A stretch of 64,000 bases of DNA from Chloroflexota bacterium (GTDB lineage: Bacteria; Chloroflexota; Limnocylindria; Limnocylindrales; CSP1-4), in the NCBI GenBank assembly GCA_025935925.1, contig JAICUI010000004.1, forward strand, positions 24,138 to 88,137. Reading direction: 5' to 3'. Shown piece after piece: positions 1-47,542 of the stretch. The notes beneath the pieces were generated by a model, which saw only the letters and a list, made by a program, of their open reading frames with translations, was not told the origin of the DNA and ran no database searches. How positions within the stretch are numbered: the stretch's first letter is position 1; each line of letters begins with the position of its first letter. The translations under genes were made by a program, and so were the position numbers.

Positions 1-1019
1 GTGACCAGGACCGGGCCCGGCAGCTCGGCGAAGGCGCGGATCGCGGGCGCACCACGCTCGACGAGCGCCTCCACGGGCCCGACCACGAGCCCCGCGCCAC
101 GGAGCCGCGCCTCGCGCGAGGCCGCGAGCGCGATCGCCGCCGGGTCGTCGCCGCCGGCCAGGCGGTCGAGGTCCAGCGCGACGCACGGCCGCCCCAGTCT
201 CGCGAGCGCGGTCCAGCCCAGCGAGCGTCCCGACGCGCCCGGTCGCTCGCGCAGGTACGCGAGTGGCAGCCCGCCCGCGATGGCGCGGACGAGCGTCTCC
301 ACCTCCGGAATGTCGACGTCGACCGAGGCCGCCAGCAGCGGCTCGAGCAGCGCGTCCGGCGCATCGTCCCCGAGGAGGTGGGCGATGACCCGGTCCGGGA
401 CCCGGAGCGTTCGCGTGAGCATCGGGCGCTCGGCGTCCTCGACGAGCAGCAGGCCGCTCCGGACCAGCGGTGCGAGGGGTTCCAGCCGCGCGCGCGCCGC
501 GCTGTCGGTCGCGCGTCGCGACCCGAGCGCGAGCTCGAGCGCGAGGCCGACGCTCGCACGCCGCCGGGACACGTCGTCGTGGAGATACCCGTACAGCCGC
601 TCGAACCGGGGGTCGAGGTCCGGCGCCAGGGCGACGAGCAGCAGCTCGACGTCGAGCGGTTCGAGCCCGAAGGCGCGGGCGGCGTCGCGCAGGCGGATCG
701 TCGCACCGGCGGCCTCCGCGGTGACGGCGTGGGCGTCGAGGACCTCGAGCCGCGACGCCGACGCGACCACGAGCTCGTCGGGCACCGTCGGTGCCGCCGA
801 CGCCGCGAGCAGCGCGTCCACCTGGTCGTCCGAGATGTACAGCCCGCGGAAGCGGTCGTCCGGGTCGGGATCCGTCGTGCGCCGGCGGTCGACGGCGGAT
901 CGAACGCGGGCCTCGAGCAGCGTGAGCCGCGCCTGCAGGTAGCCGAGGCTCGCGTCCGACGCGTCCGCGGTCCTGTCGCCGCCGGCGGCCTCCGCCGGCG
1001 CCTCGACGACGGCGCTCAC
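1..1019 (-). CDS. AAA+ ATPase of contractile injection system (Afp15/Cis15-like), N-terminal part only; gene continues past left edge
   Basis: Absent from the ORF track because it has no stop inside the window. My own reverse-strand translation from GTG 1019 stays open to position 1: VSAVVEAPAEAAGGDRTADASDASLGYLQARLTLLEARVRSAVDRRR..RFRGLYISDDQVDALL..LLLVALAPDLDPRFERLYGYLHDDVSRRRASVGLALEL. I recognise this as the helical N-terminal region of eCIS-linked AAA ATPases. Walker motifs would lie outside the window. GTGA overlap with the DUF4255 gene stop. Confidence 0.6.
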   Translation of the reverse strand, partial: MSAVVEAPAEAAGGDRTADASDASLGYLQARLTLLEARVRSAVDRRRTTDPDPDDRFRGLYISDDQVDALLAASAAPTVPDELVVASASRLEVLDAHAVTAEAAGATIRLRDAARAFGLEPLDVELLLVALAPDLDPRFERLYGYLHDDVSRRRASVGLALELALGSRRATDSAARARLEPLAPLVRSGLLLVEDAERPMLTRTLRVPDRVIAHLLGDDAPDALLEPLLAASVDVDIPEVETLVRAIAGGLPLAYLRERPGASGRSLGWTALARLGRPCVALDLDRLAGGDDPAAIALAASREARLRGAGLVVGPVEALVERGAPAIRAFAELPGPVLV

Positions 1020-1738
1020 CGGCGCGTGCCGCGCACCCGCAGCTGCATCCCGCCCTGGTCCTTCCCGGCGCCGTGCGGCACGGTCTCCTGCGGGACCGGC
1101 TCGGGCTCGGCGGCGGCCGCGCGGCCCTTGCGCCTCGTCGACCCGTTGGCCTCCTCCGCGGCGCCGTTCGTGCTCGAGAGCCCGATCGACGGCCCGGCCG
1201 TGACCGGCGCGCCGTACGGCGTCGCGAGGTTGATGACGATGGGCGCCGTGACGACGACGTCCAGCGACGGCTTCAGCTCGCCCCCGAGCGCCGTCCAGAT
1301 GTCCGCCAGGGAGCGTTCCTGGCTCTCCGGCTGGCCGACCTCGATGTACACGGGCAGGTCCGTCTCGTCGAGCGCGCCACCGAGGTCGCCCGGCTTGAGC
1401 ATCGGGTTGCGCAGCATGCACACCAGCAGCGACGACAGGAGCCGGTGCTCGTCCTCGGGCCGCTGCGTCCACGCCGTGACGAGGTACGCCAACCGGAACC
1501 GGCGCGGGGGCTGGCGCCGCCCGCTCACGGTGCCGTCGGTGCCGCGCGCGTCCTCCCAGGTCGGGACCCGGCGCTGGAGGTCCTCGCGGATGTCGTACAG
1601 GTAGAGGTTGACGCACGGCCCGCTGCGCCTCGCGACCCAGTCCTTCGTGGGCGCGTCGAACTCGAGCTCGACCGACGACCCGCTGAGCGCTTCCTGCTTC
1701 ACCAGCCGCTCGAGCAGCTGGTCGACGTCCTGGATCAC
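1016..1738 (-). CDS. DUF4255 / Pvc16-N family protein (tail terminator, Afp16/Cis16-like)
   Basis: ORF 1016..1924(-). I place the start at in-frame GTG 1738 (VIQDVDQLLERLVKQEA..). The segments WVARRSGPCVNLYLYDIRED and RFRLAYLVTAW are typical of DUF4255. The stop overlaps the ATPase start. Confidence 0.8.
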   Translation of the reverse strand: MIQDVDQLLERLVKQEALSGSSVELEFDAPTKDWVARRSGPCVNLYLYDIREDLQRRVPTWEDARGTDGTVSGRRQPPRRFRLAYLVTAWTQRPEDEHRLLSSLLVCMLRNPMLKPGDLGGALDETDLPVYIEVGQPESQERSLADIWTALGGELKPSLDVVVTAPIVINLATPYGAPVTAGPSIGLSSTNGAAEEANGSTRRKGRAAAAEPEPVPQETVPHGAGKDQGGMQLRVRGTRR

Positions 1739-1922
1739 GCCGCGATCGTCCGTCCCGCGCGCGGGGGACGCCACCCGTCGGCGGGCATGCGAGCGGGCAT
1801 CGATGGCTGCCCCTTCGGGCACCCGAGGCCGCCCTGCCGCGCGCCCCCTCGGGCCTTGTCCGTGCCCCCGGCCGGTGGGAGCGTCCATGCGTCGGGATCT
1901 GGAAGCAGGGAAAGGGCCACGC
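1739..1922. promoter_or_regulatory. Divergent intergenic control region between terminator/ATPase arm and sheath operon
   Basis: 184-nt gap between two divergently oriented CIS operons. It contains a direct repeat and a GC palindrome. No promoter hexamers identified. Confidence 0.4.
1781..1800. repeat. Direct repeat GCGGGCAT x2 with 12-nt period
   Basis: Read directly: gcgggcat gcga gcgggcat at 1781-1788 and 1793-1800. Function unknown. Confidence 0.5.
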
Positions 1923-3434
1923 ATGCCGAACTATCTGTCGCCCGGCGTGTACGTCGAGGAGGTCGAGGCCGGGTCGCGTCCCATCGAGGGCGTGGGCACG
2001 GCAGTCGCCGCCTTCGTCGGCCTCGCAGGCCGCGGGCCGGCCAACACGCCGACGCTGGTGACGAACTGGAACCAGTTCACCTCCACGTTCGGGGAGTTCG
2101 TCGAGGGCTCCTACCTCGCGCACGCCGTCTACGGCTACTTCCTCAACGGCGGTGGCGCCGCGTACGTGGTCCGCGTCGGCGCCGATGGCGTCCAGCCCAC
2201 CGCGTCCGCGGAGGTCCCGAGCGCCGAGAAGGGCAAGGCCGCGTTCCGCGTCGCCGCGATCGAGGCCGGCACGACCGGCAACGACATCAGCGTCGACGTC
2301 GAGCCCGCCACCGGCGGCGCCGAGGGCACGTTCAAGCTCGTCGTCAAGCAGGGCAGCCGGGTCGTCGAGACGTTCGACGACGTGACCGCGGGCAAGGGCA
2401 AGACCAACGTCGCGACGGTGGTCAAGGCGCAGTCCAAGGTCATCGCGATCGAGGAGGCGAGCGGCGCCCTCGCGGCCCCGGCCACGGGCTCGGTCTCGCT
2501 GGCCGGTGGCGGCGCGGCGGTTCCCGCGCGCGTGACGCCCACCGACTACGTCGGCAACTCGGCCGACCGGACCGGCTTCGCCGGGCTCGAGGCGGTCGAC
2601 GAGGTCACGATGCTGTCCGTGCCCGACCTGATGGCCGTGTACGAGCAGGGCATCATCGACCTCGAGGGCCTGCAGGCCGTCCAGCTCGCGATGATCGCCC
2701 ACTGCGAGCTCATGGGCGACCGCGTCGCGATCCTCGACGCGCCGCCAGGCCTGAACGCGCAGCAGGTCAAGGAGTGGCGGGTCGACAAGGCCGGCTACGA
2801 CTCCAAGTACGCGACGCTGTACTGGCCCTGGATCAAGGTGTTCGACCCGCTCGCCGGCCAGGCGCGGTTCGTTCCGCCGTCCGGTCACGTGGCCGGGATC
2901 TGGGCCCGCAACGACGACACCCGCGGCGTCCACAAGGCGCCGGCGAACGAGGTCATCCGCGGCGCGATCAGCCTCGAGCTCAACCTGACCAACGCCGAGC
3001 ACGACCAGCTGAACCCCAACGGGATCAACTGCATCCGGGCGTTCCCCGGTCGCGGCATCCGCGTCTGGGGCGCGCGGACCATCTCGTCGGACCCGTCGTG
3101 GCGCTACCTCAACGTCCGGCGGCTGTTCAACTACATCGAGGAGTCGATCTTCGAGGGCACCCAGTGGGTGGTCTTCGAGCCCAACGACATCCGCCTCTGG
3201 GGTCGCGTCAAGCGGACGATCAACGCGTTCCTGCTCCGGACCTGGCGCGACGGCGCGCTGTTCGGCGCGACGCCCGACCAGGCGTTCTTCGTCGTGTGCG
3301 ACGAGACGAACAACCCGCCCGAGACCCGGGACGCCGGCCAGCTGATCGTCGACATCGGCATCGCGCCCGTGAAGCCGGCCGAGTTCGTGGTGTTCCGGAT
3401 CGCCCAGTTCTCCGGCGACCCGAACGCCGAATAG
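1923..3434 (+). CDS. Contractile tail sheath protein (Afp2/Cis2-like)
   Basis: ATG 1923 lies inside ORF 1608..3434. The N-terminus MPNYLSPGVYVEEVEAGSRPIEGVGTAVAAFVG is the classic sheath start. The C-terminal NCIRAFPGRGIRVWGARTIS block is also present. Confidence 0.93.
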   Translation: MPNYLSPGVYVEEVEAGSRPIEGVGTAVAAFVGLAGRGPANTPTLVTNWNQFTSTFGEFVEGSYLAHAVYGYFLNGGGAAYVVRVGADGVQPTASAEVPSAEKGKAAFRVAAIEAGTTGNDISVDVEPATGGAEGTFKLVVKQGSRVVETFDDVTAGKGKTNVATVVKAQSKVIAIEEASGALAAPATGSVSLAGGGAAVPARVTPTDYVGNSADRTGFAGLEAVDEVTMLSVPDLMAVYEQGIIDLEGLQAVQLAMIAHCELMGDRVAILDAPPGLNAQQVKEWRVDKAGYDSKYATLYWPWIKVFDPLAGQARFVPPSGHVAGIWARNDDTRGVHKAPANEVIRGAISLELNLTNAEHDQLNPNGINCIRAFPGRGIRVWGARTISSDPSWRYLNVRRLFNYIEESIFEGTQWVVFEPNDIRLWGRVKRTINAFLLRTWRDGALFGATPDQAFFVVCDETNNPPETRDAGQLIVDIGIAPVKPAEFVVFRIAQFSGDPNAE

Positions 3435-3469
3435 CCACCGACTGAGCCAGGACCCGCACGGAGGCATCG

Positions 3470-3904
3470 ATGCCGACCACCGACCCGCTCCTTCAAGGCA
3501 ACGTACTGCTCGACATCGACGGTGTCGGGGTCGTCGCGAACTTCACCTCGGTCTCGGGGGTCAACTCCGAGGTCGAGATCGTCGACAACCCCTACGTCAA
3601 CGACCAGGGCAAGATCACGATCGCCAAGCTCCCGGGCAAGCCCAAGACGCCGACGGTCACGCTCAAGCGCGGCCTCACCGGCGCGACGGAGCTCTGGGAC
3701 TGGCACATCGCCGTGATGCAGGGGACGCCCGACCGTCGCAACGGCTCGGTCATCCTCATGAACACGCTCGGCGAGGAGGTCCTCCGCTACAACTTCACGA
3801 ACGCCATGGTGTCCAAGATCAGCCTGTCCGAGGGTGGCGCGACCACAAGCGGCGTGCAGATCGAGGAAGCCACCCTGGCGTGCGAGACCCTCATCAAGGG
3901 GTAA
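3470..3904 (+). CDS. Tail tube protein (T4 gp19-like, Afp1/Cis1-like)
   Basis: 144 aa with a GGAGG SD. Size, position after the sheath and beta-rich sequence (FTSVSGVNSEVEIV..KLPGKPKTPTVTLKRG) fit tube proteins. Confidence 0.88.
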   Translation: MPTTDPLLQGNVLLDIDGVGVVANFTSVSGVNSEVEIVDNPYVNDQGKITIAKLPGKPKTPTVTLKRGLTGATELWDWHIAVMQGTPDRRNGSVILMNTLGEEVLRYNFTNAMVSKISLSEGGATTSGVQIEEATLACETLIKG

Positions 3905-3913
3905 GGACCGTAG

Positions 3914-4348
3914 ATGACGGCCGCGGCCCTGCCCGAGATCCCGATCGAGCGCGGGAGCGCGAACGTGTCCGATGCCGTGCGCACGGAATACGCGTTCGTG
4001 CTCCCCCGCGGCTACGTCGACGGGACGGGAGCGGTCCATCGCGACGGCGTGATGCGCCTCGCGACGGCCCGCGACGAGATCATCCCCCAGCGCGACCCGC
4101 GGGTCCGGGAGAACGAGGCGTACCTCACGATCCTCCTCCTGTCCCGGGTCGTGACCAGGCTGGGCACGCTCCCGCAGGTGCACACGGGCGTGATCGAGGG
4201 GCTGTTCGCCTCCGACCTCGCCTTCCTGCAGGACCTGTACCGGCGGATCAACCAGGAAGGCCACACGCAGGCCTCCGTGACCTGCCCGGCCTGCAGTCAC
4301 GCGTTCACCGTCGACGTGGCGGGTGAGCAGCGCCTGGGGGAATCGTGA
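3914..4348 (+). CDS. Conserved CIS protein in the tail-assembly-chaperone position
   Basis: 144 aa with an AAGGGG..GGA SD. Sits directly after the tube as in phage and eCIS order. Single CPAC motif near the C-terminus. The function is positional inference only. Confidence 0.6.
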   Translation: MTAAALPEIPIERGSANVSDAVRTEYAFVLPRGYVDGTGAVHRDGVMRLATARDEIIPQRDPRVRENEAYLTILLLSRVVTRLGTLPQVHTGVIEGLFASDLAFLQDLYRRINQEGHTQASVTCPACSHAFTVDVAGEQRLGES

Positions 4349-4503
4349 CGTACGCGACCGACCGCCTGTTCGAGGAGGTCGCGTACGTCGCCTACCACTT
4401 CCACTGGCCGATGGACACGATCCTCGACCTCGAGCACCCGCTCCGGCTGCGGTTCGTCGAGGAGATCGGTCGCATCAACAAGCGCCTGTCCGAGGAGGAG
4501 TAG
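4345..4503 (+). CDS. Small conserved CIS protein (52 aa, DUF6760-like)
   Basis: Too short for the ORF track. GTG 4345 overlaps the upstream stop (GTGA) and TAG is at 4501-4503. Translation: VTYATDRLFEEVAYVAYHFHWPMDTILDLEHPLRLRFVEEIGRINKRLSEEE. GC-rich third codon positions. The family name is from memory. Confidence 0.6.
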   Translation: MTYATDRLFEEVAYVAYHFHWPMDTILDLEHPLRLRFVEEIGRINKRLSEEE

Positions 4504-4506
4504 CCC

Positions 4507-6498
4507 GTGCGCCTGCCCTGGCCCTTCGGCCGCGGGACGACGTCGGGCGAGCCCGCCTCCGGCGGCGCGTCGACGACGCTGGCGACCGGCGGGCAGCCGG
4601 CCGCCCCTGCCGTCCAGCGCGACGCGACGCCCACCGGCGCGTGGGCGTCGCTGCCGCCGATCCAGCGGACGATCGCGGCCGCCCCGCTCGTCGCCCCGGC
4701 GGCACCGTTCCTGCACGACGTCCCCGGACATCGCCCGCTGCCGCCGATCTTGCAGCCGCTGGGTCACGAGTCGACGCCCAGCGCGCCCGCCGGCCTGGTG
4801 GCCGCGCACGCGTCCCCCGTCCCGAGCCTGACCTCGCAGGCGCCGATGCCGACGCGCCACGTGCAGCGCCGCGCCGCGGAACCGCAGCCGGCCGCGTGGA
4901 CCGGCGCGGCCGCTGGCCCTGAGCCGGACGCGCTCGGCACGTCCGTGGCCGGCGCCGGCGCCGACGCCGGATCCGCGCCCGAGCCCGAGCCGGTCCGCCG
5001 GCTCGCGACGGTGTCGCCATCGCATACGGCCACGCCGCCGGCGCGGCCGCTGACGGTCGCCCCGCCGATCACCAGGAGCGCCGCCCCGGCCGTCCAGCGA
5101 TCCGCCGCGCCGCCAGCGAGCGCTGCAACCGCCGCGCCGACGGCGGGGTCGCCGGCCGTGCAGCGCGACACGGCCATGCCGCTCGCCGCGAGCGGCACGG
5201 CGCCGGCCCGGATCTCGCGCTGGTCCGAGGCGGGATCGACGCCGGGATCGAAGCCGGGCCTCGGCGCGCCGCTGAGCCCGGGCCCGACGCCCGGGACGCC
5301 CGCCGCGTCGTCGCCGTCGCCCTCGACCGCACCGTCCGCGGCCGCCGGGTCCGTGCCGTCGCCCTCGACCGAGCTCGCGCACCGCCCGGGCCTCGGGGCG
5401 CCGATGAAGGCGCTGCCCGACAGCGCCACCCGCGGCCCGGCGCCCTCCATGCCGCTCGTCCAGCGGCTGGCCGCGAGCCACGCCGCGGAGACCGGCGCTC
5501 GCCCGACCACCGGACCGGTCCCGCCCGAGCTGCTGCCGGCATCGGCGACGAGCCCGGGAGCCGCTCCCGGCACGAGCGCGGCCGGCGACCGTCACGCGGC
5601 GGCTCCCCGTCCCGAGGCCGCCCGCGCACTGCCCACCCTCCCGGTCGCTCGTCCGCGTGCCGAGCGCCCGGGTGCCGCTCCGACACCGGTCCAGCGGAGC
5701 ACGGGCCCGGTGTCACCGCGCACCGCCGCCGGGCCCTCGACCAGCCCGTCCGGCACCGCCCCCTCGCCGACGATCCTGCCGCTCGCCGGCGCCCGCCCGA
5801 TCCGTCCCTCGGTCGCGGTGCAGCGACAGGCCGGCGCCGACGACGCTCCGGAACCCGCGCTCCCGGTGGCCGCACGGTGGCCGTCGGGCGACGGCCTGCC
5901 GGCGACGGTCGCGAGCGACGCGCGGCCGACCCCGACGCCCGACGCGGTCCCGCTGCAGCGCCTTGCGGCGCCCGATCCGGCCCCGGTCCAGCCCCCGGCC
6001 GTGGGCACCGGCTGGCACGGCGCGCACAGCCCGGCGCTCGGCAGCCCGGGGCTCGCCCAGGCCGCCAGCCTCGGCGCGCCGGGCGGCGTCCCGGCACCCT
6101 CGATCGCGCGCCGCGCCCCCGCCCCCGCGACCTCGATCGCGCCGACGCTCCAGCTGGCGCGCGCGACCGCCGCGGCCGGAGCCGCGCCGGCGCCGCTCGT
6201 GATCGCCCAGCCGGTCGCCGCGCCCGCGGGCCGCATCGAGGCGCCGGTGTCCACAGCACCCGCCCCCACGGTTCAGACCAGCCCGTCCCCCGCCGCCGCG
6301 CTGCCGACCTTCACGTCGACCCCGGTCGTCCAGCGCGAGGCCGGCACGGCACCCCCCGCCGCCGGGGGCCAGACCGGCCGGACCGACCGCGAGCTCGACG
6401 AGCTCGCCAAGCAGCTGTTCGGCCGCGTCCGCGGCCAGCTGCGCGCCGAGATCATCAACGAGCGCGAGGCCCGCGGCCTCGGCTTCGACGCCTTCTAG
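4507..6498 (+). CDS. Pro/Ala-rich protein with repeated VQR motifs in the tape-measure slot (Afp14/Cis14 position)
   Basis: GTG start after a GAGGAGGAG SD. 663 aa of low complexity with about 10 x [VIL]QR motifs. Charged helical C-terminus TDRELDELAKQLFGRVRGQLRAEIINEREARGLGFDAF. The role is inferred from gene order. Confidence 0.6.
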   Translation: MRLPWPFGRGTTSGEPASGGASTTLATGGQPAAPAVQRDATPTGAWASLPPIQRTIAAAPLVAPAAPFLHDVPGHRPLPPILQPLGHESTPSAPAGLVAAHASPVPSLTSQAPMPTRHVQRRAAEPQPAAWTGAAAGPEPDALGTSVAGAGADAGSAPEPEPVRRLATVSPSHTATPPARPLTVAPPITRSAAPAVQRSAAPPASAATAAPTAGSPAVQRDTAMPLAASGTAPARISRWSEAGSTPGSKPGLGAPLSPGPTPGTPAASSPSPSTAPSAAAGSVPSPSTELAHRPGLGAPMKALPDSATRGPAPSMPLVQRLAASHAAETGARPTTGPVPPELLPASATSPGAAPGTSAAGDRHAAAPRPEAARALPTLPVARPRAERPGAAPTPVQRSTGPVSPRTAAGPSTSPSGTAPSPTILPLAGARPIRPSVAVQRQAGADDAPEPALPVAARWPSGDGLPATVASDARPTPTPDAVPLQRLAAPDPAPVQPPAVGTGWHGAHSPALGSPGLAQAASLGAPGGVPAPSIARRAPAPATSIAPTLQLARATAAAGAAPAPLVIAQPVAAPAGRIEAPVSTAPAPTVQTSPSPAAALPTFTSTPVVQREAGTAPPAAGGQTGRTDRELDELAKQLFGRVRGQLRAEIINEREARGLGFDAF

Positions 6499-6509
6499 CG
6501 AGGAGCCCG

Positions 6510-6998
6510 ATGGACCCCGCCGTCAACGTCTTCTACCGCGTCTCGATCGACGGGATGATCCCGCTCGGCATCTGGACCAAGGTCGATGGCCTCGGCATGG
6601 AGTACCAGGTCACGGAGTACCGCGAGGGCGGCGTGAACGGGTACATGCACAAGATCATCGGCCCGGCGAAGTTCACGAACCTTCGGCTGTCGCGACCCGT
6701 CGACATGACGTCGCCGCTCCTGATGGCCTGGCTGGTCAGCAACCAGGTGGCCATCAAGCCCCAGACGATGGCGGTGACGGCGATGACCGCCGCGGGCGAC
6801 GACATCACGACGTGGAGCCTCGTCGGCGTCGTCCCGGTGAAGTGGACCGGCCCCTCGCTCGACATCATGAGCAACGCGGTGTCCACGGAGACGCTCGAGG
6901 TCGCGTACCAGGAGATCAGCCTGCTCGGCGGCCTGCTCGGATCCGCGGTCGGCGCGCTCGCGGGCGCCGTCGGCGGCTCCGCCAGCGTGTCGTTCTGA
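6510..6998 (+). CDS. Second tube-like protein (gp19 family, Afp5-like)
   Basis: ATG 6510 with a GAGGAG SD inside ORF 5877..6998. Starts MDPAVNVFYRVSIDGMIPLGIWTKVDGLGMEYQVTEYREGG, which resembles tube and tube-initiator proteins. Gly/Ala-rich C-terminal tail. Confidence 0.82.
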   Translation: MDPAVNVFYRVSIDGMIPLGIWTKVDGLGMEYQVTEYREGGVNGYMHKIIGPAKFTNLRLSRPVDMTSPLLMAWLVSNQVAIKPQTMAVTAMTAAGDDITTWSLVGVVPVKWTGPSLDIMSNAVSTETLEVAYQEISLLGGLLGSAVGALAGAVGGSASVSF

Positions 6999-7009
6999 GG
7001 TCCTGATCG

Positions 7010-7759
7010 ATGGGACTGGACATCGCCGGGGCCGCCGCGGGCGCCGCCGCGACCTTCGGCGGAGACCTCCTCGGGCTGACCAAGCCCACCAAGGCGAAGC
7101 TCACGGTGAAGTCGGGCGAGCCGGACTCCCCGGACAACACCGATCCCCTGCCGTGCATGTTCAACCCGACCGAGTACTCCCTGTCGCGGACGACGTCGGT
7201 CCAGCGCAACGAGAGCCCGCAGCAGGTCGGCGGGACGCCCCATTACTCCGGCAGCGGCCCGCTGTCGCTGACGATGCAGCTCTTCTTCGACGACTTCGCG
7301 GCGGCCGAGGGCGACGTGACGCCGGCGATCACCCGGCTGCTCGGCTGGACGGTCCCCAAGGACCCGACCCAGCCCAACGCCCGGCCGCCCAAGATCGGCT
7401 TCGACTGGGGCAACCCGCAGCTCCAGGGCTTCTGGGGCTACATCACCTCGCTCCGGATCAGCTACACGGTCTTCCGGATGAACGGCATCCCGGTCCAGGC
7501 CAAGGTCGATCTCACGATCGAGGAGGTGATGCCCGAGAACCCGCCCGGGACAAACCCGACGTCGCACTCGATCAACAGCCGCCGGGTGCGCACCGTGATC
7601 GAGGGCGAGTCGCTGCAGGGCCTCGCGTACCGTGAGCTCGGCAAGCCGTCGTACTGGCGGGCGATCGCGGAGCTCAACGGCATCGACGACCCGATGTCGC
7701 TCCAGCCGGGCGCCGCGCTGCTGATGCCGACCAAGGCCGACGCGGCGCGCCAGGGCTGA
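7010..7759 (+). CDS. Tube-fold N-terminal domain plus LysM domain protein (Afp7-like baseplate/tube initiator)
   Basis: 249 aa. The C-terminal VIEGESLQGLAYRELGKPSYWRAIAELNGIDDPMSLQPGAALLMP is a LysM motif. The CMFNPTEYSLS tube-like block lies upstream. Confidence 0.85.
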   Translation: MGLDIAGAAAGAAATFGGDLLGLTKPTKAKLTVKSGEPDSPDNTDPLPCMFNPTEYSLSRTTSVQRNESPQQVGGTPHYSGSGPLSLTMQLFFDDFAAAEGDVTPAITRLLGWTVPKDPTQPNARPPKIGFDWGNPQLQGFWGYITSLRISYTVFRMNGIPVQAKVDLTIEEVMPENPPGTNPTSHSINSRRVRTVIEGESLQGLAYRELGKPSYWRAIAELNGIDDPMSLQPGAALLMPTKADAARQG

Positions 7760-7763
7760 CCGC

Positions 7764-9437
7764 ATGCCGCTGACCGCCTCCGTCCCGAGCACGGCGACCG
7801 TCAAGGTCGACGGGAGCGACCTCGATCCCGCCGTCGCGGCGTCGATCGAGAGCGTCCTCGTCGTGGACCGGCTGGCGATGCCCGACATGTTCACGGTCGT
7901 GTTCCGCGACCGCGATCGGGACATCCTCGGCAACGCGGGGCTCGAGATCGGCAAGGCGATCGAGATCTCGGCAACGTCGCAGTCGGACGACGCCGACGCG
8001 GTGCTGATCAAGGGCGAGGTGACCTCGGTCGAGGCGGACTACGACACGCTCGGCGCGCGGGCGATCGTCCGCGGCTACGACAAGTCGCACCGCCTCGCGG
8101 CGGGCCGGAAGACGAAGACGTTCGAGAACGTGAAGCTGTCCGACGTCGCGAAGCAGATCGCGTCGGGCGCGAGCCTCCAGGCCGACGCGGACGAGACCGA
8201 CGGCACGCTCGACCACGTGTTCCAGGTCAACCAGTCGGACCTCGACTTCCTGTACGCGATCGCGCTCCGCGCGGGATTCGACTGCCGGGTGGACGGCGAC
8301 ACGCTGCTGTTCAAGAAGCCGGTCGAGTCGTCCGGCGGCCCGGACGAGGGCGAGCCCAGCGATGCCGGCGGCGCGACCCTCGTCTGGGGCGTGAACCTCG
8401 TCGAGTTCCGGGCGCGCATGAGCGCTGTCGCGCAGGTGTCCGAGGTCGAGGTCCGAGGCTGGGATCCCAAGGCCAAGGAGGCGGTGATCGGCAAGGGCAC
8501 GCCGGCCGCCGCGAACACCGAGCTCGAGAGCGGCGTGACGCCGACGGACCTCGCCGACAAGGTCGGCGGCCAGACGCTGGTCGTCGTCGATCACCCGGTC
8601 TCGACGCAGGCCGACGCCGACGTGCTGGCGAACGCGCGGGCGGGCCAGGTCGGCAGCGCGGCGTTCGAGGCGACCGCGGTCGCGGTCGGCGACCCGAAGC
8701 TCAAGGCCGGGACGGCGGTCAGCGTGTCGGGCGTCGATCCGGCGCTCGTCGGCAAGTGGGTCATCTCGGGCTCGCGCCACGAGTTCAGCAACGGCGTCTA
8801 CCAGACGGCGCTCGACTTCACGGGCCGCCAGGATCGCTCGATCCTCGGCCTCGTGTCCCAGGGCCTTGCGGGCGGCGACAAGCTGTACGGCGTCGTCGTC
8901 GGCATCGTGAGCGACAACAAGGATCCCGACGAGCTGGGCCGCGTCAAGGTCAAGTACCCGTGGCTCGCGGACGACGCGGTCTCGTACTGGGCGCGCGTCG
9001 CCGCCCCGGGGGCCGGCACGACGGCCGGCGTGACGTGGCTGCCGTCGGTCAACGACGAGGTGCTGCTCGCGTTCGAGCACGGCGACCTCGACCACCCGAT
9101 CGTCCTCGGCGGGTTGTGGAACGGCAAGGACGCGATCCCGTTCAACTACGACGAGGACCTCGACAACGGCACCGTGACGTACTTCGGGTTCACCTCCCGG
9201 ACCGGCCACAAGATCAGCCTGTTCGAGGGCCAGAACGACTCCCTGATCCAGCTCCTGACCGCCAACGGCGAGGTCAACGTCGTGCTGGACGACAAACACA
9301 AGGAGCTCCGGATCGAGAGCACCGGGAAGGTCACGGTCGATGCCCAGGGCGACGTGTCGATCAAGGCCGGCGGCTCCATGAAGATCGAGGCCTCGGGCGA
9401 GCTGTCGCTCAAGGGCTCCACGGTGAAGATCAACTGA
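7764..9437 (+). CDS. VgrG-like baseplate hub/spike (phage gpD-like, Afp8/Cis8-like)
   Basis: 557 aa. Contains a gpD-like N-terminal region (VFQVNQSDLDFLYAIALRAGF), an OB-fold block (GVVVGIVSDNKDPDELGRVKVKYPWL) and a beta-helical C-terminus. Confidence 0.9.
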   Translation: MPLTASVPSTATVKVDGSDLDPAVAASIESVLVVDRLAMPDMFTVVFRDRDRDILGNAGLEIGKAIEISATSQSDDADAVLIKGEVTSVEADYDTLGARAIVRGYDKSHRLAAGRKTKTFENVKLSDVAKQIASGASLQADADETDGTLDHVFQVNQSDLDFLYAIALRAGFDCRVDGDTLLFKKPVESSGGPDEGEPSDAGGATLVWGVNLVEFRARMSAVAQVSEVEVRGWDPKAKEAVIGKGTPAAANTELESGVTPTDLADKVGGQTLVVVDHPVSTQADADVLANARAGQVGSAAFEATAVAVGDPKLKAGTAVSVSGVDPALVGKWVISGSRHEFSNGVYQTALDFTGRQDRSILGLVSQGLAGGDKLYGVVVGIVSDNKDPDELGRVKVKYPWLADDAVSYWARVAAPGAGTTAGVTWLPSVNDEVLLAFEHGDLDHPIVLGGLWNGKDAIPFNYDEDLDNGTVTYFGFTSRTGHKISLFEGQNDSLIQLLTANGEVNVVLDDKHKELRIESTGKVTVDAQGDVSIKAGGSMKIEASGELSLKGSTVKIN

Positions 9438-9453
9438 GCGGGCGGGAGACGAC

Positions 9454-9852
9454 GTGACGGAGCAGTTCATCGGCCGCGGCTGGGCGTTCCCCCTGCGCGT
9501 GGACTCGACCGGCGGGATCGCGCTCGTCTCGCGCGAGCAGGAGATCGAGGAGGCGATCCGGCTGATCCTCGGGACGTCACCCGGCGAGCGGCCGATGCGA
9601 CCGGAGTTCGGCTGCCGGATCCACGAGTACCTCTTCGCGTCCGCCGACAGCGAGACCGCCCACGCGATCGAGGGCGAGGTGCGTGCCGCGCTCCGCCAGT
9701 GGGAGCCGCGGATCGAGGTCCAGGACGTCGTCGTGAGCATCGACCGCGTCAGCCCCGCGCTCCTGTACATCGACGTCCGCTACGCGATCAAGGCGACCAA
9801 CGACCGCCGCAACCTCGTGTTCCCGTTCTACGTGATCCCGGGAGGAGACTGA
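9454..9852 (+). CDS. GPW/gp25 family baseplate wedge protein (Afp9-like)
   Basis: 132 aa. FIGRGWAFPLRVDSTGGIALVSREQEIEEAIRLILGTSPGERPMRPEFGCRIHEYLF is the canonical gp25 signature. Confidence 0.92.
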   Translation: MTEQFIGRGWAFPLRVDSTGGIALVSREQEIEEAIRLILGTSPGERPMRPEFGCRIHEYLFASADSETAHAIEGEVRAALRQWEPRIEVQDVVVSIDRVSPALLYIDVRYAIKATNDRRNLVFPFYVIPGGD

Positions 9853-9854
9853 CC

Positions 9855-11801
9855 ATGGCCCTGCCGGTCCCCAACCTCGACGACCGCCGCTTCCAGGACC
9901 TCGTCGACGAGGCCAAGCGGCTCGTCCAGCAGAAGTGCCCCGAGTGGACCGACCACAACGTGTCGGATCCGGGCGTGACGCTGATCGAGCTGTTCGCGTG
10001 GATGACCGACCAGGTCGTCTACCGGCTCAACCGCGTCCCGGACCGGCACTACGTCAAGTTCCTCGAGCTCATCGGCGTCACGCTGTTCCCGGCCACCGCG
10101 GCCCGGACGCAGGTCACGTTCTGGCTGTCGGCCCCCCAGCCGGACGTGGTCTCGATCGCCGCCGGGACGCAGGTCGCGACGCTCCGCACGGACACCTCCG
10201 AGGCGATCCTGTTCGCCACGACCGGGGCGCTGCCGATCGTCCCGTGCTCGCTGGCACGGCTCGGCTCGATGATCGACGGCAAGACCTTCCGCGACCACAC
10301 CGAGGCGCTCCAGAAGGGCGCCGACGTGTACGGCTTTCACGAGGTGCCGCAGCCGGGCGACGCACTGTACGTCGGCCTGTCGGACGCGGTGCCGTCGAAT
10401 GCCGTGCGGCTCCGGTTCAACGCCCACATCGAGGGCGTCGGCGTGGATCCCACGAACCCGCCGCTCGCCTGGGAGGCGTGGACAGGCGACGACTGGGAGC
10501 CGTGCGAGCTCGACACCGACACGACCGGCGGTCTCAACCGCGACGGCGACGTGGTGCTGCACGTCCCGAAGGGCCACGTCGCGTCGCTGCTCGCGAAGCA
10601 GCGGGCCGGCTGGCTCCGGGCCCGGGTGACCGAGGCCTACGAGGGCCAGCCGGCGTACAGCGCGTCGCCGAGCGTCACCGGGCTCGCCGCGATCACGATC
10701 GGCGGGACCGTCGAGGCCGTGAACGCCGAGCTCGTCCACGACGAGGAGGTCGGCGTCTCGGCCGAGATCCCGGGCCAGCGGTTCCCGCTCAAGAAGGGTC
10801 CCGTGGTGCCGGCCGACGATCCCGCCGTGCTCGAGGTGTCCGACGACGAGGGCTGGGACGAGTGGACGTTCGTCGCGGACTTCGCGGCGAGCGGCCCGGA
10901 CGACAAGCACTTCACGCTCGATCTCGCCGCCGGCGAGGTCCTTCTCGGCCCGGCGGTGCGGCTCGCCGACGGCGGGCTGCGGCAATACGGCAAGATCCCG
11001 GCCAAGGGCGCGCATCTCCGGCTGCGCGAGTACCGGGTGGGCGGCGGCCGGCGCGGCAACGTCGCGCCTCGGGCGATCAGCGTCATGAAGGCCTCGATCC
11101 CGTTCGTGTCGCGCGTCGAGAACCGGCGGCCCGCGCGGGGCGGCGTGGACGCCGAGGACATCGAGAACGCGAAGCTGCGCGGGCCGATCCGGCTCCGGGC
11201 GCGCGGGCGCGCCGTGACGACCGAGGACTACGAGCAGCTCGCGCGCGAGGCCGCCCCGGAGGTCGCGCGCGTGCGCGCGGTCGCGGCGGGCGACGGCGCC
11301 GATGCCGGGTCGGTGCGCGTCCTCGTCGTCCCGTCCGCGGTGTCCGAGCAGGGCCGCCTGCGGTTCGACCAGCTCGTCCCCAACGACGACACGCTCCAGA
11401 AGATCACCGACCGCCTCGAGGAGAGCCGCGTGATCGGCACGCGGGCGAACGTCGAGCCGCCGGTGTATCGAGGGGTCACGGTCGTGGCCCGCCTCCGGGC
11501 GCGCCCACGAGCGAACCCGGCGCGGCTCCAGGAGGACGCGCTACAGGCACTGTTCGAGTACTTCCACCCGATCACGGGCGGGCCCGACGGGTCGGGCTGG
11601 CCGTTCGGCCGACCCGTCAACGTGGGCGAGGTGTACTCGGTGCTCCAGGCGCTGCGCGGGACCGAGATCGTCGAGGATGCGCGGCTGTTCGGCGCGGACC
11701 CGGTCACCGGGCAGCGCGGGCAGCAGACCCAGCGCCTCGAGCTCGAGCCGCACGCGCTGGTGTTCAGCTACGAGCACCAGGTCCTGGTCGAGGGCGCCTG
11801 A
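9855..11801 (+). CDS. Baseplate J-like protein (gp6/Afp11-like)
   Basis: ATG 9855 with a GGAGGAG SD inside ORF 9699..11801. N-terminus MALPVPNLDDRRFQDLVDEAKRLVQQKCPEWTDHNVSDPGVTLIELFAWM is typical of this family. Confidence 0.9.
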   Translation: MALPVPNLDDRRFQDLVDEAKRLVQQKCPEWTDHNVSDPGVTLIELFAWMTDQVVYRLNRVPDRHYVKFLELIGVTLFPATAARTQVTFWLSAPQPDVVSIAAGTQVATLRTDTSEAILFATTGALPIVPCSLARLGSMIDGKTFRDHTEALQKGADVYGFHEVPQPGDALYVGLSDAVPSNAVRLRFNAHIEGVGVDPTNPPLAWEAWTGDDWEPCELDTDTTGGLNRDGDVVLHVPKGHVASLLAKQRAGWLRARVTEAYEGQPAYSASPSVTGLAAITIGGTVEAVNAELVHDEEVGVSAEIPGQRFPLKKGPVVPADDPAVLEVSDDEGWDEWTFVADFAASGPDDKHFTLDLAAGEVLLGPAVRLADGGLRQYGKIPAKGAHLRLREYRVGGGRRGNVAPRAISVMKASIPFVSRVENRRPARGGVDAEDIENAKLRGPIRLRARGRAVTTEDYEQLAREAAPEVARVRAVAAGDGADAGSVRVLVVPSAVSEQGRLRFDQLVPNDDTLQKITDRLEESRVIGTRANVEPPVYRGVTVVARLRARPRANPARLQEDALQALFEYFHPITGGPDGSGWPFGRPVNVGEVYSVLQALRGTEIVEDARLFGADPVTGQRGQQTQRLELEPHALVFSYEHQVLVEGA

Positions 11802-12355
11802 TGCGCGGCGGCGTGCAGGGACTCGTGTCGGCCCACCCGATGGGGCCGACGCTGCCCGCGATCTACCAGGACGACGACTTCGCGCAGCGCTTCCTCGCGG
11901 CACTCGACCAGGTGTACGCGCCGATCTGGAGCACGCTCGACAACTTCGACTCGTACCTCGACCCGTACCTGACGCCCGACGACTTCCTGACCTGGCTCGC
12001 GGGCTGGGTCGGGATCGCGCTCGACGAGAGCTGGGACGAGGCACGCCGGCGGGCGATCGTGTCGCGCGCCGTCGAGCTGTACCGGATGCGCGGGACCGCG
12101 GCCGGTCTCGCGGGCCAGGTCGAGATCCAGACCGGCGGTGCCGTCGAGATCGTCGAGAACGGCGCGACCGGCTGGTCCGTCGATCCGGGCGGCGACCTCC
12201 CGGGGTCGCCGGAGCCCTTGGTCGTCGTCCGCGTCCGGGTGCCGGATCCCAAGTCGATCGACGCGAACCGGCTGGACGCGCTGGTGGCGGCCGCGAAGCC
12301 GGCGCACGTGATGCACCGGATCGAGCTCGTGAAGGGCGCCGCCGACAAGGCATGA
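11801..12355 (+). CDS. Phage tail protein I-like (P2 gpI / Afp12-like)
   Basis: ATG 11801 shares one nucleotide with the stop of the J-like gene (TGATG). LPAIYQDDDFAQRFLAALDQVYAPIWSTLDNFDSYLDP..AVELYRMRGTAAGL matches the gpI-like family. Confidence 0.88.
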   Translation: MRGGVQGLVSAHPMGPTLPAIYQDDDFAQRFLAALDQVYAPIWSTLDNFDSYLDPYLTPDDFLTWLAGWVGIALDESWDEARRRAIVSRAVELYRMRGTAAGLAGQVEIQTGGAVEIVENGATGWSVDPGGDLPGSPEPLVVVRVRVPDPKSIDANRLDALVAAAKPAHVMHRIELVKGAADKA

Positions 12356-12431
12356 CCTCTGGCCGGGATGTGAAGCGGGTGCTGCGCCACTATGCTTCGC
12401 GCGGGATTCCACGGCTGAGGGGAGTGCACGC

Positions 12432-15239
12432 TTGATCGTCTGCGGCAACTGCGGCGCACAGAACGATCCGTCCGACGCGTTCTGCGGGAACTGCGGCCAG
12501 TTCCTGGAGTGGTCGAAGCCCGCGGAGCCGATCGATTCCGCGCCCACCGCCCCCGCGCCGTCATCGAGCCGCGTCGTGTTCGTCGACACGGATCCCGATG
12601 CCGCGCCCGCCGCGGCAGCAGGAGGCCCGCAGGCAGAAGCCGATCGTCAGGCCGCCGCAGAAGCGGAGCGACAGGCCGAGGCGGAGCGACAGGCTGCTGC
12701 GGCCGAGGCGGAGCGACAGGCCGAGGCGGAGCGGCAGGCTGCTGCGGCCGAGGCGGAGCGCCAAGCGGAAGCGGAGCGCCAGGCGGAAGCGGAGCGGCAA
12801 GCGGAAGCCGAGCGCCAGGCTGCTGCGGCCGAGGCCGAGCGTCAGGCAGAAGCGGAGCGCCAGGCTGCGGCGGCCGAGGCGGAGCGGCAAGCGGAGGCAG
12901 ATCGGCAGGCGGAAGCGGAGCGTCAGGCTGCGGCCGCCGAGGCGGAACGGCAGGCCGAGGCGGAGCGGCAGGCGGAAGCCGAGCGCCAGGCTGCGGCGGC
13001 GGAAGCGGAGCGTCAGGCCGAAGCGGAGCGCCAGGCCGCGGCGGCGGAAGCTGAGCGGCAGGCCGAGGCCGAGCGCAAGGCGGAAGCCGACCGCCAAGCC
13101 GAAGCCGAGCGCCAGGCTGCGGCGGCCGAAGCCGAGCGCCAAGCCCAAGCCGAGCGGGAAGCCGAAGCAGAGCACAAGGCCGAAGCCGAGCGCAACGCCG
13201 AGGCCGAGCGGCAAGCCGAGGCCGAGCGGCAAGCGGAAGCCGACCGCCAAGCCGAAGCGGAGCGCAAAGCCGAGGCCGAGCGCAAAGCCGAGGCCGAGCG
13301 GCAAGCCGAAGCGGAGCGGCAGGCGGCCGCCCAAGCGGAGCGCCAGGCTGCCGCCGAAGCCGACCGTCAGGCGAAAGCCGAGCGACAAGCAGAAGCCGAA
13401 CGGCAGGCTGCAGCAGCGGAAGAGGAGCACCGAGCCGAGGCGGAGCGGCAAGCCGCTGCAGCGGAGGCTGAGCGCCAGGCCGAGGCCGACCGCCAAGCCG
13501 AGGCCGATCGCCAGGCCGAGGCCGATCGCCAGGCCGCTCGCACGACAGCTGGATCGACGACCTCAACGACGACGCCCGCCGACGACCCGCCAACGCCGAC
13601 CTCGCCCGCGCCCGGCCGCGCACCGCAAACGGACCCAACGAGCGCGCCGGTTCCCGACCCCATCGCCGCGGCCGCGATCGTCGCCGGAGCTCCCCCGGTC
13701 GCTGCCGCAGAAGCCGCCGCCGCATCCGCCGGAGCGATGGCGTCGAACACGACCCCCGCGGTCGCCCCGGAGTCCGCCACGCCGGGCGTCGCCGATCGTC
13801 CCGCAGACGGTGACGCCGAGCCGGAAGGCGTGCCGGCGTTCGAGCCCGAGCCCGTCGAACCGGTCGTTTCCGCTCCCCCGCCGGCGCCGAAGGCGCGCAA
13901 GGGCGGTGCCTCCAAGAAGTTCTCGACGACGCTCGCGGCCGGGGCCGCGGAAGCGGCCGCCGCAGCGGCAGCGACGGAACCGCTGAGCGGCATAACCCCG
14001 ACCACCGAAGCCGTCGCTCCGTCAGCGACGCCGCCGGGCTCCTCGCCATCGGGCGCGCGGCCCGCGGCTGCCGGCGCGATCCCGGGCTGGGGTCAGCCGG
14101 TCGCGCCGTCGACCTCCGCGACGACGTCAGCGCCGCCTGCCGTCACGCGGATCGCGGCGACGCCTCCGCCTCCGCCGCCGGGTACGGCAGCGCATACCAC
14201 GCCACCGGCCGTCGCGCCGACGGCCGGGCAGCAGCCGGCGGCGGTCCGCCCGACGGCGCCCGTGACCGCCGCCATGGCCGGCGCCGCGACCGCGGCGGCA
14301 ACGACGGAGCCCGCCGCACGCCCGCCCGTCGCACCCGACGACGGCATCCAGTCGAGACGGCCGCAGGACGTCGCCCGACCGGCGCCGAAGCCGGCCACGT
14401 CCGTCCCCGAACGCGTCGCCCAGCCCGGCGACCGCATCTGCGGCGCGTGCAGCGAGCCGAACGATCCCGCTCGCAAGTTCTGCCGCCGCTGCGGCGCCAG
14501 CCTCGTCGAGGCCAAGGTCGTCGCGGCACCGAAGCTGCCGTGGTACCGACGGATCTTCGGTGGCGGCAAGCAGGCAAAGCAGTACGCCGCGGGCGAGCGC
14601 ATCGACTCGATGCAGAAGGGCTCGGTCAAGGCTCCCCGCCAGGGCATCGGCGGCCTGCTCCGCAGCTTCGCCAAGGGCCGGAGCATGGTCGTGGGCCTGC
14701 TGGGCATCGTCGTCGCGATCGGGTTCCTCGGCTACATCGGCATCCCGTCGGTCCACGGCATGGTGGACGGCGCGCTGAGCGGCGGACCCCAGCACATCGT
14801 CGACAACATCCGCAAGGCGATCGCGCCGACGCCGCAGATCGTCACGCCGACGTCGGTGACGTCCCTGGACGCGGGCGCCGACGTCAAGGACCATCCGCCC
14901 GCGCTCGTCTGGGACAAGGCGACGAACACCGACTGGCAGTCGACGTCGAAGGCCCCCGGGCTGAAGGTCACGTTCAAGGACAGGATCGACCTGATGTTCC
15001 TGCTGGTCTACGCCGGCAACTCGACGAAGTTCGTCGACCTCCAGCGGCCGGCGAAGCTCCGGATCACGTTCCCCGACGGCTCGAGCCAGGACATCGACCT
15101 CGCCGACACGAAGGACAAGCAGTCGTTCCCGGTGTCGAAGGACGGCATCGATTCGCTGACGATCACCGTCCTCGACACGAACGGGCCGGCGGGCGCCCCC
15201 TTGTCGATCTCGGAGCTCGAGTTCAACAAGAAGACCTAG
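12432..15239 (+). CDS. Bitopic membrane protein: zinc ribbon, AEAERQ repeat helix, Pro/Ala linker, second zinc ribbon, TM helix, discoidin/NADase-type glycan-binding-like C-terminal domain
   Basis: TTG start with a GAGGGGAG SD. CxxC-x10-CxxC at aa 4-21 and aa 670-687. Repeats at aa 68-367. TM helix MVVGLLGIVVAIGFLGYIGI at nt 14685-14744. The C-terminal domain contains ALVWDKATNTDWQS. Confidence 0.8.
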   Translation: MIVCGNCGAQNDPSDAFCGNCGQFLEWSKPAEPIDSAPTAPAPSSSRVVFVDTDPDAAPAAAAGGPQAEADRQAAAEAERQAEAERQAAAAEAERQAEAERQAAAAEAERQAEAERQAEAERQAEAERQAAAAEAERQAEAERQAAAAEAERQAEADRQAEAERQAAAAEAERQAEAERQAEAERQAAAAEAERQAEAERQAAAAEAERQAEAERKAEADRQAEAERQAAAAEAERQAQAEREAEAEHKAEAERNAEAERQAEAERQAEADRQAEAERKAEAERKAEAERQAEAERQAAAQAERQAAAEADRQAKAERQAEAERQAAAAEEEHRAEAERQAAAAEAERQAEADRQAEADRQAEADRQAARTTAGSTTSTTTPADDPPTPTSPAPGRAPQTDPTSAPVPDPIAAAAIVAGAPPVAAAEAAAASAGAMASNTTPAVAPESATPGVADRPADGDAEPEGVPAFEPEPVEPVVSAPPPAPKARKGGASKKFSTTLAAGAAEAAAAAAATEPLSGITPTTEAVAPSATPPGSSPSGARPAAAGAIPGWGQPVAPSTSATTSAPPAVTRIAATPPPPPPGTAAHTTPPAVAPTAGQQPAAVRPTAPVTAAMAGAATAAATTEPAARPPVAPDDGIQSRRPQDVARPAPKPATSVPERVAQPGDRICGACSEPNDPARKFCRRCGASLVEAKVVAAPKLPWYRRIFGGGKQAKQYAAGERIDSMQKGSVKAPRQGIGGLLRSFAKGRSMVVGLLGIVVAIGFLGYIGIPSVHGMVDGALSGGPQHIVDNIRKAIAPTPQIVTPTSVTSLDAGADVKDHPPALVWDKATNTDWQSTSKAPGLKVTFKDRIDLMFLLVYAGNSTKFVDLQRPAKLRITFPDGSSQDIDLADTKDKQSFPVSKDGIDSLTITVLDTNGPAGAPLSISELEFNKKT
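12633..13532 (+). repeat. In-frame tandem repeat, about 44 x 18-nt units (AEAERQ) with 9-nt AAA inserts
   Basis: Hand count of hexads in the translation. The units differ mainly at third codon positions (gcg/gcc/gca, gag/gaa, cga/cgg/cgc/cgt, cag/caa). Confidence 0.95.
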
Positions 15240-44537: not shown

Positions 44538-44607
44538 CCACGCGAGGGTAGCCGAAATCCCGCTGGCGACGGCTCCCACGAGCCTCGCTACGGCCGCCCG
44601 AGCGCGA

Positions 44608-47255: not shown

Positions 47256-47542
47256 GCGTCCCAGCCGTCGACCTCGTCCAGCTCCTCGAGGCGGTCGATC
47301 AGCGCCTCGATCCCGGCCTCGTCGCGCATCAGCTCGGTCGCGGACGGCGACTCGCCACCGAACACCTCGCGGAGCACCGGGTCGAAGAACAGCATGGCCG
47401 GCGCGCCGAGCGGGCGATACGGACGGCTGGCCTCCAGGAAGTGGACGGCCGGGCCCGTGAGGCCGCGCAGCCGGATCTCCCGCGCGACCGCCTCGACGAG
47501 GGCCTCCCGGCGCTGGTCCAGCGGCTCGAAGGGCAGGCTCAC
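47252..47542 (-). CDS. Hypothetical protein (96 aa), first gene of a coupled trio
   Basis: GTG 47542 overlaps the macro-domain gene stop (GTGA). Acidic C-terminus EELDEVDGWDA. No family recognised. Confidence 0.5.
   Translation of the reverse strand: MSLPFEPLDQRREALVEAVAREIRLRGLTGPAVHFLEASRPYRPLGAPAMLFFDPVLREVFGGESPSATELMRDEAGIEALIDRLEELDEVDGWDA

Follow-up and report, generated by a model that had tools for sequence, protein, structure and literature searches.

A probable subtype IId contractile injection system locus with a CisA homologue in a Chloroflexota (Candidatus Limnocylindrales) genome

We analysed a stretch of 64,000 nucleotides (the window hereafter) from a Chloroflexota bacterium (assembly GCA_025935925.1, contig JAICUI010000004.1, positions 24,138 to 88,137), the first 15,239 positions of which hold a locus predicted to encode the complete core set of a contractile injection system (CIS), that is, the cap, the ATPase, the sheath, the tube, two tube initiators, the spike, the gp25-like protein and the Cis11/Cis12 wedge. 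The core set is followed by a gene for a 935-aa membrane protein, which in sequence, in predicted architecture and in gene position is a homologue of CisA, the protein needed for firing of the CIS in Streptomyces (PMC12237407). As argued below, the locus is very likely a new member of subtype IId of the extracellular contractile injection systems (eCIS), the type of CIS-Sc of Streptomyces coelicolor and SLP of Streptomyces lividans, and would thus belong to a known class rather than represent a new machine.

At the window G+C content of ~74% raw lists of open reading frames (ORFs) are unreliable, and the gene map in Table 1 was made from a third-position-GC frame plot together with the translations, with families assigned by Pfam, NCBIfam and PHROGs scans. 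The twelve plus-strand genes, running from the sheath through the baseplate to the CisA homologue, are tightly packed. Neighbouring genes overlap by 4, 4 and 1 nt, the cap stop and the ATPase start sharing 4 nt, or are separated by 2-16 nt, the exceptions being 35 nt between sheath and tube and 76 nt between Cis12 and the CisA homologue. The coding space of 1-18259 is fully used, with the biggest unassigned stretches only 184 nt and 76 nt long. The initial annotation had listed the genes from the DUF4255 cap and the ATPase through the sheath to the gpI-like protein and had proposed profile searches of the products; each call is backed by the frame plot and the family scans. For the AAA ATPase the call stands in part, with the winged-helix N-terminus present in the window and the AAA domain lying beyond the left window edge, where it is seen only in the 710-aa protein of a relative, the metagenome contig L001. 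As a full account of 1-15239 the list fell short, having left out the 935-aa gene, which is the most informative one of the locus.

Table 1. Predicted features of the CIS locus in the window, with the evidence for each.
Feature	Position	Strand	Evidence
Cis15/Afp15-type ATPase, N-terminal 339 aa, winged-helix domain	<1-1019	-	Pfam WHD PF22977 E=1.3e-31
Cap/terminator Cis16, Pvc16_N/DUF4255	1016-1738	-	Pfam Pvc16_N E=4.3e-38; PDB 9gts_0A E=2.7e-58
Divergent intergenic/promoter region, 184 nt	1739-1922	.	Conserved GGGCA half-sites and palindrome
Contractile sheath Cis2	1923-3434	+	Pfam Phage_sheath_1, Phage_sheath_1C; PDB 8bky_A E=1.5e-201, 8bl4_V E=3e-198, full length
Inner tube Cis1a, gp19-like	3470-3904	+	Pfam Phage_T4_gp19 E=1.4e-22
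144-aa chaperone-like protein, C-terminal CxxC motif	3914-4348	+	phrog_508 tail assembly chaperone E=4.2e-5 (weak)
DUF6760 small protein, 52 aa	4345-4503	+	Pfam DUF6760 E=8.7e-13
663-aa Pro/Ala-rich protein, tape-measure slot	4507-6498	+	No family match
Second gp19-like tube / tube initiator Cis1b, Afp5-like	6510-6998	+	Pfam Phage_T4_gp19 E=2.1e-25; TIGR02241 above cut-off; CIS5_fam E=3e-17 below cut-off
Tube initiator/spike hub Cis7, LysM	7010-7759	+	Pfam CIS_tube E=2.2e-21; LysM E=6e-4 just under cut-off; PDB 9gtp_P E=7.3e-31
VgrG-like spike Cis8	7764-9437	+	Pfam Phage_base_V, Phage_GPD; NCBIfam VgrG_rel E=5e-142; PDB 9gtr_q E=2.6e-73
gp25-like sheath initiator Cis9	9454-9852	+	Pfam GPW_gp25 E=2.1e-27; 61% identity to S. 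lividans counterpart
Baseplate wedge Cis11, Baseplate_J	9855-11801	+	Pfam Baseplate_J; NCBIfam TIGR02243 E=2.6e-162; PDB 9gtp_1K E=1.2e-234
Baseplate wedge Cis12, Tail_P2_I	11801-12355	+	Pfam Tail_P2_I E=2.7e-16; PDB 9gtp_E E=1.7e-48, sole PDB match
CisA homologue, 935 aa	12432-15239	+	BLASTP, hhalign, NCBIfam, AlphaFold2 (AF2), gene position
Cluster-linked regulator, 1007 aa	15236-18259	-	Pfam BTAD, Trans_reg_C, AAA_22; NCBIfam MalT N-terminal E=2e-57 below cut-off

The kinship with the Streptomyces system is seen in every structural protein searched against the PDB (sheath, Cis7, Cis8, Cis11, Cis12 and cap), the best match being a chain of the cytoplasmic CIS of S. coelicolor in 6 of 6 cases. 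Compared with the E-values of these matches (Table 1), the runners-up reach only ~1e-44 to 1e-50 for the sheath (the AFP and PVC sheaths), 1.8e-5 for Cis11, 1e-39 for the spike, 2e-9 for the cap and 1.7e-10 for Cis7. From Cis1b to CisA the genes follow the order of the S. lividans locus (L169), at protein identities of 27-61%, the order of the upstream half of the operon having been compared with related loci and with the published description. It is noted that the subtype IId clade has neither a fibre nor a typical tape measure, with PAAR present only in some species and absent in S. coelicolor (PMC10066040). The window locus resembles CIS-Sc and SLP (PDB 8bky, 9gtp, 9gtr, 9gts) in the part list and the sheath-to-CisA order, in lacking a fibre, a PAAR protein and a typical tape measure, in the two tube-like initiators and the Cis11/Cis12 wedge, in the CisA-type membrane protein after Cis12, and in the eCIS_core/DUF4157 genes on the divergent arm, which here are seen in the closest relative, L001. 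It differs from them in the host phylum and the level of identity, in the cap and ATPase genes lying directly beside the sheath promoter, and in a regulator that ends in a winged-helix and a BTAD domain.

Two further comparisons place the locus. The CIS of Roseiflexus castenholzii (ISME J 2026) is of the same phylum and the same subtype and is likewise fibre-less, its particles having been seen free in the cytoplasm; no close homologue of cisA is reported for Roseiflexus in that study, whereas the window locus and ~140 related genomes have one. AFP, PVC and AlgoCIS share with the window locus the sheath, tube, spike, gp25, Baseplate_J, the Pvc16-type cap and the AAA ATPase. By contrast, these three are equipped with Afp13-type fibres, a defined tape measure and in most cases PAAR and exert their action outside the producing cell, and the PDB matches to them are weaker by 100-150 orders of magnitude for the sheath and by ~50 orders for the cap. 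The initial annotation had taken the locus for a probably cytoplasmic or membrane-facing CIS of the Streptomyces type, and the PDB matches, the S. lividans gene order and the CisA homologue support this, the cytoplasmic action itself being argued by homology; the actinobacterial host that it associated with this fibre-less type does not apply, the host here being one of the Chloroflexota (Candidatus Limnocylindrales).

The 935-aa protein begins with a zinc ribbon (12432-12518), which is followed by a spacer composed of ~310 residues of AEAERQ repeats (~12615-13547) and then ~280 residues rich in Pro, Ala and Thr. After a second zinc ribbon (~14439-14504) come a PWYRRIF/AAGER juxtamembrane motif, one transmembrane (TM) helix at residues 752-772 (14685-14747), which is the single hydrophobic peak of the protein, and a C-terminal 130-residue extracytoplasmic NADase-type discoidin domain (14844-15236). 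The Lys/Arg-rich residues ahead of the TM helix and the zinc ribbons on its N-terminal side agree with an N-in topology. As the query for comparison we used residues 1-310 of S. coelicolor CisA, taken from a published supplementary model file, which contain, as in the window protein, an N-terminal ribbon, a second ribbon, a PWWRRLF...AGDRP motif and a TM helix. With BLASTP this query matches residues 670-772 of the window protein with E=9e-14 and the N-terminal ribbon with E=2e-4, the two matches being collinear. The same query also led to the full 468-aa S. lividans protein P0361, which carries PF25302 NADase_transloc, and by hhalign the family alignment of the C-terminal module (A1) matches this full CisA with a probability of 99.7% and E=2.4e-26, the 233 aligned columns reaching as far as the terminal ISEIEFF.

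Moreover, the window discoidin domain passes the NCBIfam model NADase_discoid NF047619 (45.1 bits vs a cut-off of 38), and the outer domain as modelled by AF2, at a predicted local distance difference test score (pLDDT) >90, matches CBM32/discoidin structures at a target-normalised TM-score of up to 0.77 (<=0.77). It is because of the BLASTP and hhalign matches, the NADase_discoid match, the discoidin-fold model and the position after Cis12 that we identify the protein as a CisA homologue. CisA (SCO4242) and the window protein have in common the N-terminal zinc ribbon, the low-complexity cytoplasmic region, the second ribbon, the PWWRRLF/AGDR motif, the TM helix, the discoidin outer domain and the gene position. 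They differ in length (468 aa vs 935 aa), in the window spacer being partly an AEAERQ repeat predicted to form one helix of 164 residues and another of 135, and in the extra conserved short motifs KARKGGASKKFSTTL and GAIPGWGQP in the window linker. That the outer domain is unrelated to that of CisA, which the eLife paper likens to substrate-binding domains, is ruled out by the full-length CisA alignment. Matches of the 935-aa protein to MSCRAMM models are low-complexity noise far under the NCBIfam cut-off. A minus-strand gene that the third-position-GC picker placed at 12561-13496 is an artefact of the AEAERQ codons: the plus-strand ORF is continuous and in frame with the conserved flanking modules, and the homologues repeat likewise. 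The spurious minus-strand ORF spans 311 aa, and in the true frame the repeat has 100% GC at codon position 1 and ~75% at position 3.

The spacer between the two zinc ribbons is hypervariable. In 41 complete homologues it ranges from 118 to 700 residues and falls into two types, one Pro/Glu-rich (EP repeats) and the other Ala/Glu/Arg/Gln-rich; the window spacer, with 648 residues (vs 199 in S. lividans CisA), is the third longest of them. In L007, the closest relative with this gene (8384-10984), Cis11 is 93% identical and the N-terminal ribbon is identical, with an EP spacer replacing AEAERQ, and because of this the spacer type is seen, in these sequence comparisons, to change fast between near relatives while the flanking motifs persist. 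The AEAERQ repeat units match each other at 65-80% of their DNA and differ mainly at synonymous sites, the peptide pattern being kept. Several loci from Nanopore-derived metagenome-assembled genomes (MAGs) carry frameshifts inside the spacer repeats. In the AF2 model of the spacer, computed from a single sequence, residues 67-230 and 238-372 form helices with pLDDT >90, which may make up one rod of ~45 nm or a hairpin. The linker motifs PAPKARKGGASKKFSTTL (~13860-13915) and GAIPGWGQP (~14070-14100) are common to Limnocylindria relatives, including L007, L009, L037 and L044; they are possible docking motifs.

A scan of species-representative genomes with profile A1 gave 142 relatives, and 80 loci from among them were retained. 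Almost all of these come from MAGs labelled Chloroflexia, Chloroflexota or Candidatus Limnocylindrales, with a few from Acidimicrobiales and Thermoleophilia and, in addition, Saccharothrix and Umezawaea. In every retained locus with enough upstream DNA the CisA-like gene directly follows Cis12 of a full CIS operon. The same regulator stands beside the CisA homologue in nearly all of the Chloroflexota and Acidimicrobiales loci and is not present in the three actinomycete loci. On this survey of gene neighbourhoods, CisA-type adaptors are conserved well beyond the actinomycetes, which is a modest new point; another is that their spacers are very long, fast-evolving and probably stiff. In line with the host assignment, the 90% clusters of the window ribosomal protein S11, of the sheath and of the 144-aa protein have named members from Candidatus Limnocylindrales or Chloroflexota. 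The literature searched gave no link between CIS and Limnocylindria.

What lies to the left of the window is read here from L001, which is 90.5% identical in nucleotides to window 1-4406, and from other relatives. Leftward, L001 holds the rest of the ATPase, giving a WHD+AAA protein of 710 aa to whose N-terminus the window fragment is 85% identical, then a 234-aa eCIS_core/DUF4157 protein and then a giant protein (1-4277 of L001; the gene call has 3215 aa, of which 1425 were read). The giant protein starts with an eCIS_core domain with HExxH, followed by some ten VIEMEPxVITGRPP repeats and an extended helical region rich in Lys and Glu, and from these features is a candidate large effector. 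An eCIS_core gene comes right after the ATPase in 23 of the 38 related metagenome loci in which 3 kb or more follows the start of the ATPase. Because L001 and these 23 loci are so arranged, eCIS_core (DUF4157) cargo-type genes very probably lie just left of the window as well. In the S. lividans cluster a pair of this kind, Sle2 (DUF4157) and the coiled-coil effector Sle1, lies on the reverse arm (PMC13277306). The initial annotation held that toxin-type genes just to the left would make the locus a classical secreted eCIS; this is too strict, as eCIS_core genes at that place match the Streptomyces Sle1/Sle2 systems. The leftward extension that it suggested for the ATPase and the cargo was thus made in relatives, where it yielded the rest of the ATPase and the eCIS_core genes of L001.

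The 663-aa protein in the tape-measure slot has no family in Pfam, NCBIfam or PHROGs. It has nine P-x-[VL]QR motifs vs 0.19 expected, and 0 of 2000 shuffles reach nine. These motifs, together with a C-terminal ELxxxL..RER.G helix, are common to its counterparts in Saccharothrix, Umezawaea and S. lividans. The protein itself is possibly a length determinant or a lumenal cargo. VQR motifs were also observed in the eCIS_core proteins of L001, a hint that the two kinds of protein may have a motif for loading or for the tube lumen in common. Elsewhere in the operon, the inner tube protein Cis1a has an identical copy on 12 metagenome contigs, and the 144-aa protein, with no family match in Pfam or NCBIfam, is among the best-conserved of the cluster, with 52-98% tblastn best-segment identity in related loci of several phyla.

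As for regulation, the cap/sheath intergenic region has a length of 184-190 nt in the window and in 16 of 34 related loci, and in the 17-sequence alignment the GGGCA half-sites at 1783-1787 and 1795-1799 and the palindrome TGCCC-N4-GGGCA at 1808-1821 are columns conserved at >=90%. Conserved CCTTGTC and GAGCGTC-like boxes follow the palindrome in the same region. From this conservation the sites would be candidate operator or promoter elements for the cluster regulator. The regulator, which is convergent with the CisA homologue, the two stops overlapping by 4 nt, consists of a MalT-like STAND ATPase, helical repeats and then a C-terminal OmpR-type winged helix with BTAD. This order is unusual, being the reverse of that in the AfsR-type Streptomyces antibiotic regulatory proteins.

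The scan of the proteins against the profile libraries covered 1-57.8 kb, and in this range no protein matched a fibre, capsid, terminase, integrase or PAAR family, no portal or lysis gene was found, and neither a TssJLM-type membrane complex nor a ClpV-type ATPase was present; no transposon family was found among the genes from 18.4 to 57.8 kb, and no tRNA in the window. In 1-18259 a PAAR or fibre gene cannot hide, because the unassigned stretches are only those of 184 nt and 76 nt. The absences that the initial annotation had reported for 1-18259 are therefore borne out, the coding space being exhausted with no such family and no tRNA. Its fibre slot, however, is not empty: a fibre is still absent, and the slot holds the CisA homologue. 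At 18.4-57.8 kb lie housekeeping genes (ppdK, prolyl-tRNA synthetase, glycerol kinase, recO, glmU, ksgA, tsaD, alr, glmS, glmM and others), and at 59.8-62.6 kb the rpoA ribosomal cluster, in which rpoA, rpsD, rpsK and rplQ were named via cluster names; ppdK also adjoins the locus in both metagenome relatives checked. Because the flanks are housekeeping and phage, transposon and PAAR families are missing, the locus is, as judged from gene content, chromosomal and not a prophage, in agreement with the initial reading of a chromosomal, non-prophage CIS next to core metabolism. Within these flanks the ORFs at 43555-45339, 45627-47255 and 47252-47542 (594, 542 and 96 aa) have coding-like codon statistics and no Pfam match.

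Based on these comparisons, we propose by analogy that the window CIS would act from the cytoplasm and be triggered at the membrane. In Streptomyces the CIS particles are free in the cytoplasm and bring about stress-induced cell death (PMC10066040), and in the Chloroflexota subtype IId particles occur in the cytoplasm of Roseiflexus (PMC12998442); by homology to both, the particles would assemble free in the cytoplasm. The CisA homologue would engage the baseplate via its N-terminal zinc ribbon and cytoplasmic region, probably through Cis11, with the 648-residue spacer, of two predicted long helices and a disordered Pro/Ala/Thr segment, letting the ribbon reach tens of nm into the cytoplasm, and with the outer discoidin/CBM32-like domain plausibly binding cell-wall glycan. 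Under envelope stress the contact between the CisA homologue and the baseplate would bring the particle to the membrane and the sheath would contract, so that lumenal cargo would be driven into the producer's own membrane, leading to regulated cell death or a physiological change. The cargo would probably consist of the eCIS_core/DUF4157-linked proteins encoded left of the window and possibly also of the VQR-motif protein. A further idea, which we regard as tentative and on balance doubtful, is that the hypervariable spacer is a tuned, semi-rigid reach element that sets the distance of the ribbon from the membrane for catching free particles, while the discoidin domain reports cell-wall damage.

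Several points weigh against the proposed cytoplasmic, membrane-triggered action. For this organism the localisation, the trigger and the target are all argued by analogy, and the cargo genes themselves lie outside the window. In the C-terminal module, the identity of the window protein to Streptomyces CisA is no higher than 27%. The helical-spacer model comes from one sequence, and a hairpin may form instead of a rod. In Streptomyces itself CisA is not found in purified particles, and the CisA-Cis11 contact is in the literature an AlphaFold prediction only. Finally, the Roseiflexus study leaves an eCIS-like action on neighbours possible (PMC12998442).

The last point leads to the alternatives, which are disfavoured because the fibre, the membrane complex and the head and lysis genes are missing. 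One is a classical extracellular CIS like AFP or PVC, with lysis-released particles injecting eCIS_core-linked toxins into other organisms and with the 935-aa protein having an unrelated envelope role. The cap, the ATPase and the eCIS_core genes are hallmarks of such a system too, and the room left by the Roseiflexus paper for action on neighbours is in its favour. It is nevertheless improbable, since no fibre or other receptor-binding gene was found and the Afp13 slot is held by the CisA homologue, since all tested parts are nearest to the cytoplasmic Streptomyces system, since the locus shows strict linkage to a homologue of the firing factor CisA, and since subtype IId particles (Streptomyces, Roseiflexus and Deinococcota) have been seen only within cells (PMC10066040, PMC12998442).

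It could alternatively be supposed that the CisA homologue holds the baseplate permanently at the membrane, in function like a type VI secretion system anchor, the tube firing outwards through the envelope into neighbours. This is suggested by the single-pass protein with its conserved cytoplasmic N-terminal module and its outer domain of a glycan-binding type, and by its strict linkage to the baseplate genes, but it would require docked particles, whereas in Streptomyces and Roseiflexus they are seen floating freely and not in a docked state (PMC12237407, PMC12998442); moreover, TssJLM-like and ClpV-like genes are missing from the 58 kb scanned, and a flexible spacer of 118-700 residues would be a poor rigid anchor, so that we consider this arrangement quite unlikely. 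A defective prophage tail module or a tailocin is hardly credible. Although all the core parts derive from myophage tails, the proteins scanned to 57.8 kb include none for a capsid, portal, terminase, lysis function or integrase and the window has no tRNA, the Pvc16 cap and WHD-AAA ATPase are specific to CIS, and the same locus recurs beside the same regulator in relatives and also beside ppdK in both metagenome relatives checked.

Cytoplasmic CIS were recognised in 2023 and the firing factor CisA in 2025, with the work done on Streptomyces and the imaging in Roseiflexus and Deinococcota. The present locus adds Limnocylindria, an uncultured soil and freshwater lineage of the Chloroflexota, in which, as in some Acidimicrobiales and Thermoleophilia, the whole package of particle, CisA-type adaptor, cluster regulator and probable eCIS_core cargo is conserved. 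The reach of CisA beyond the actinomycetes is notable since the sole Chloroflexota system studied was reported without a close homologue. The range of lengths and types that the spacer takes in nature provides material for testing how CisA acts, and if the reading of the spacer as a reach element is true, its natural variants would give a handle on how cytoplasmic CIS find the membrane and on what triggers their firing.

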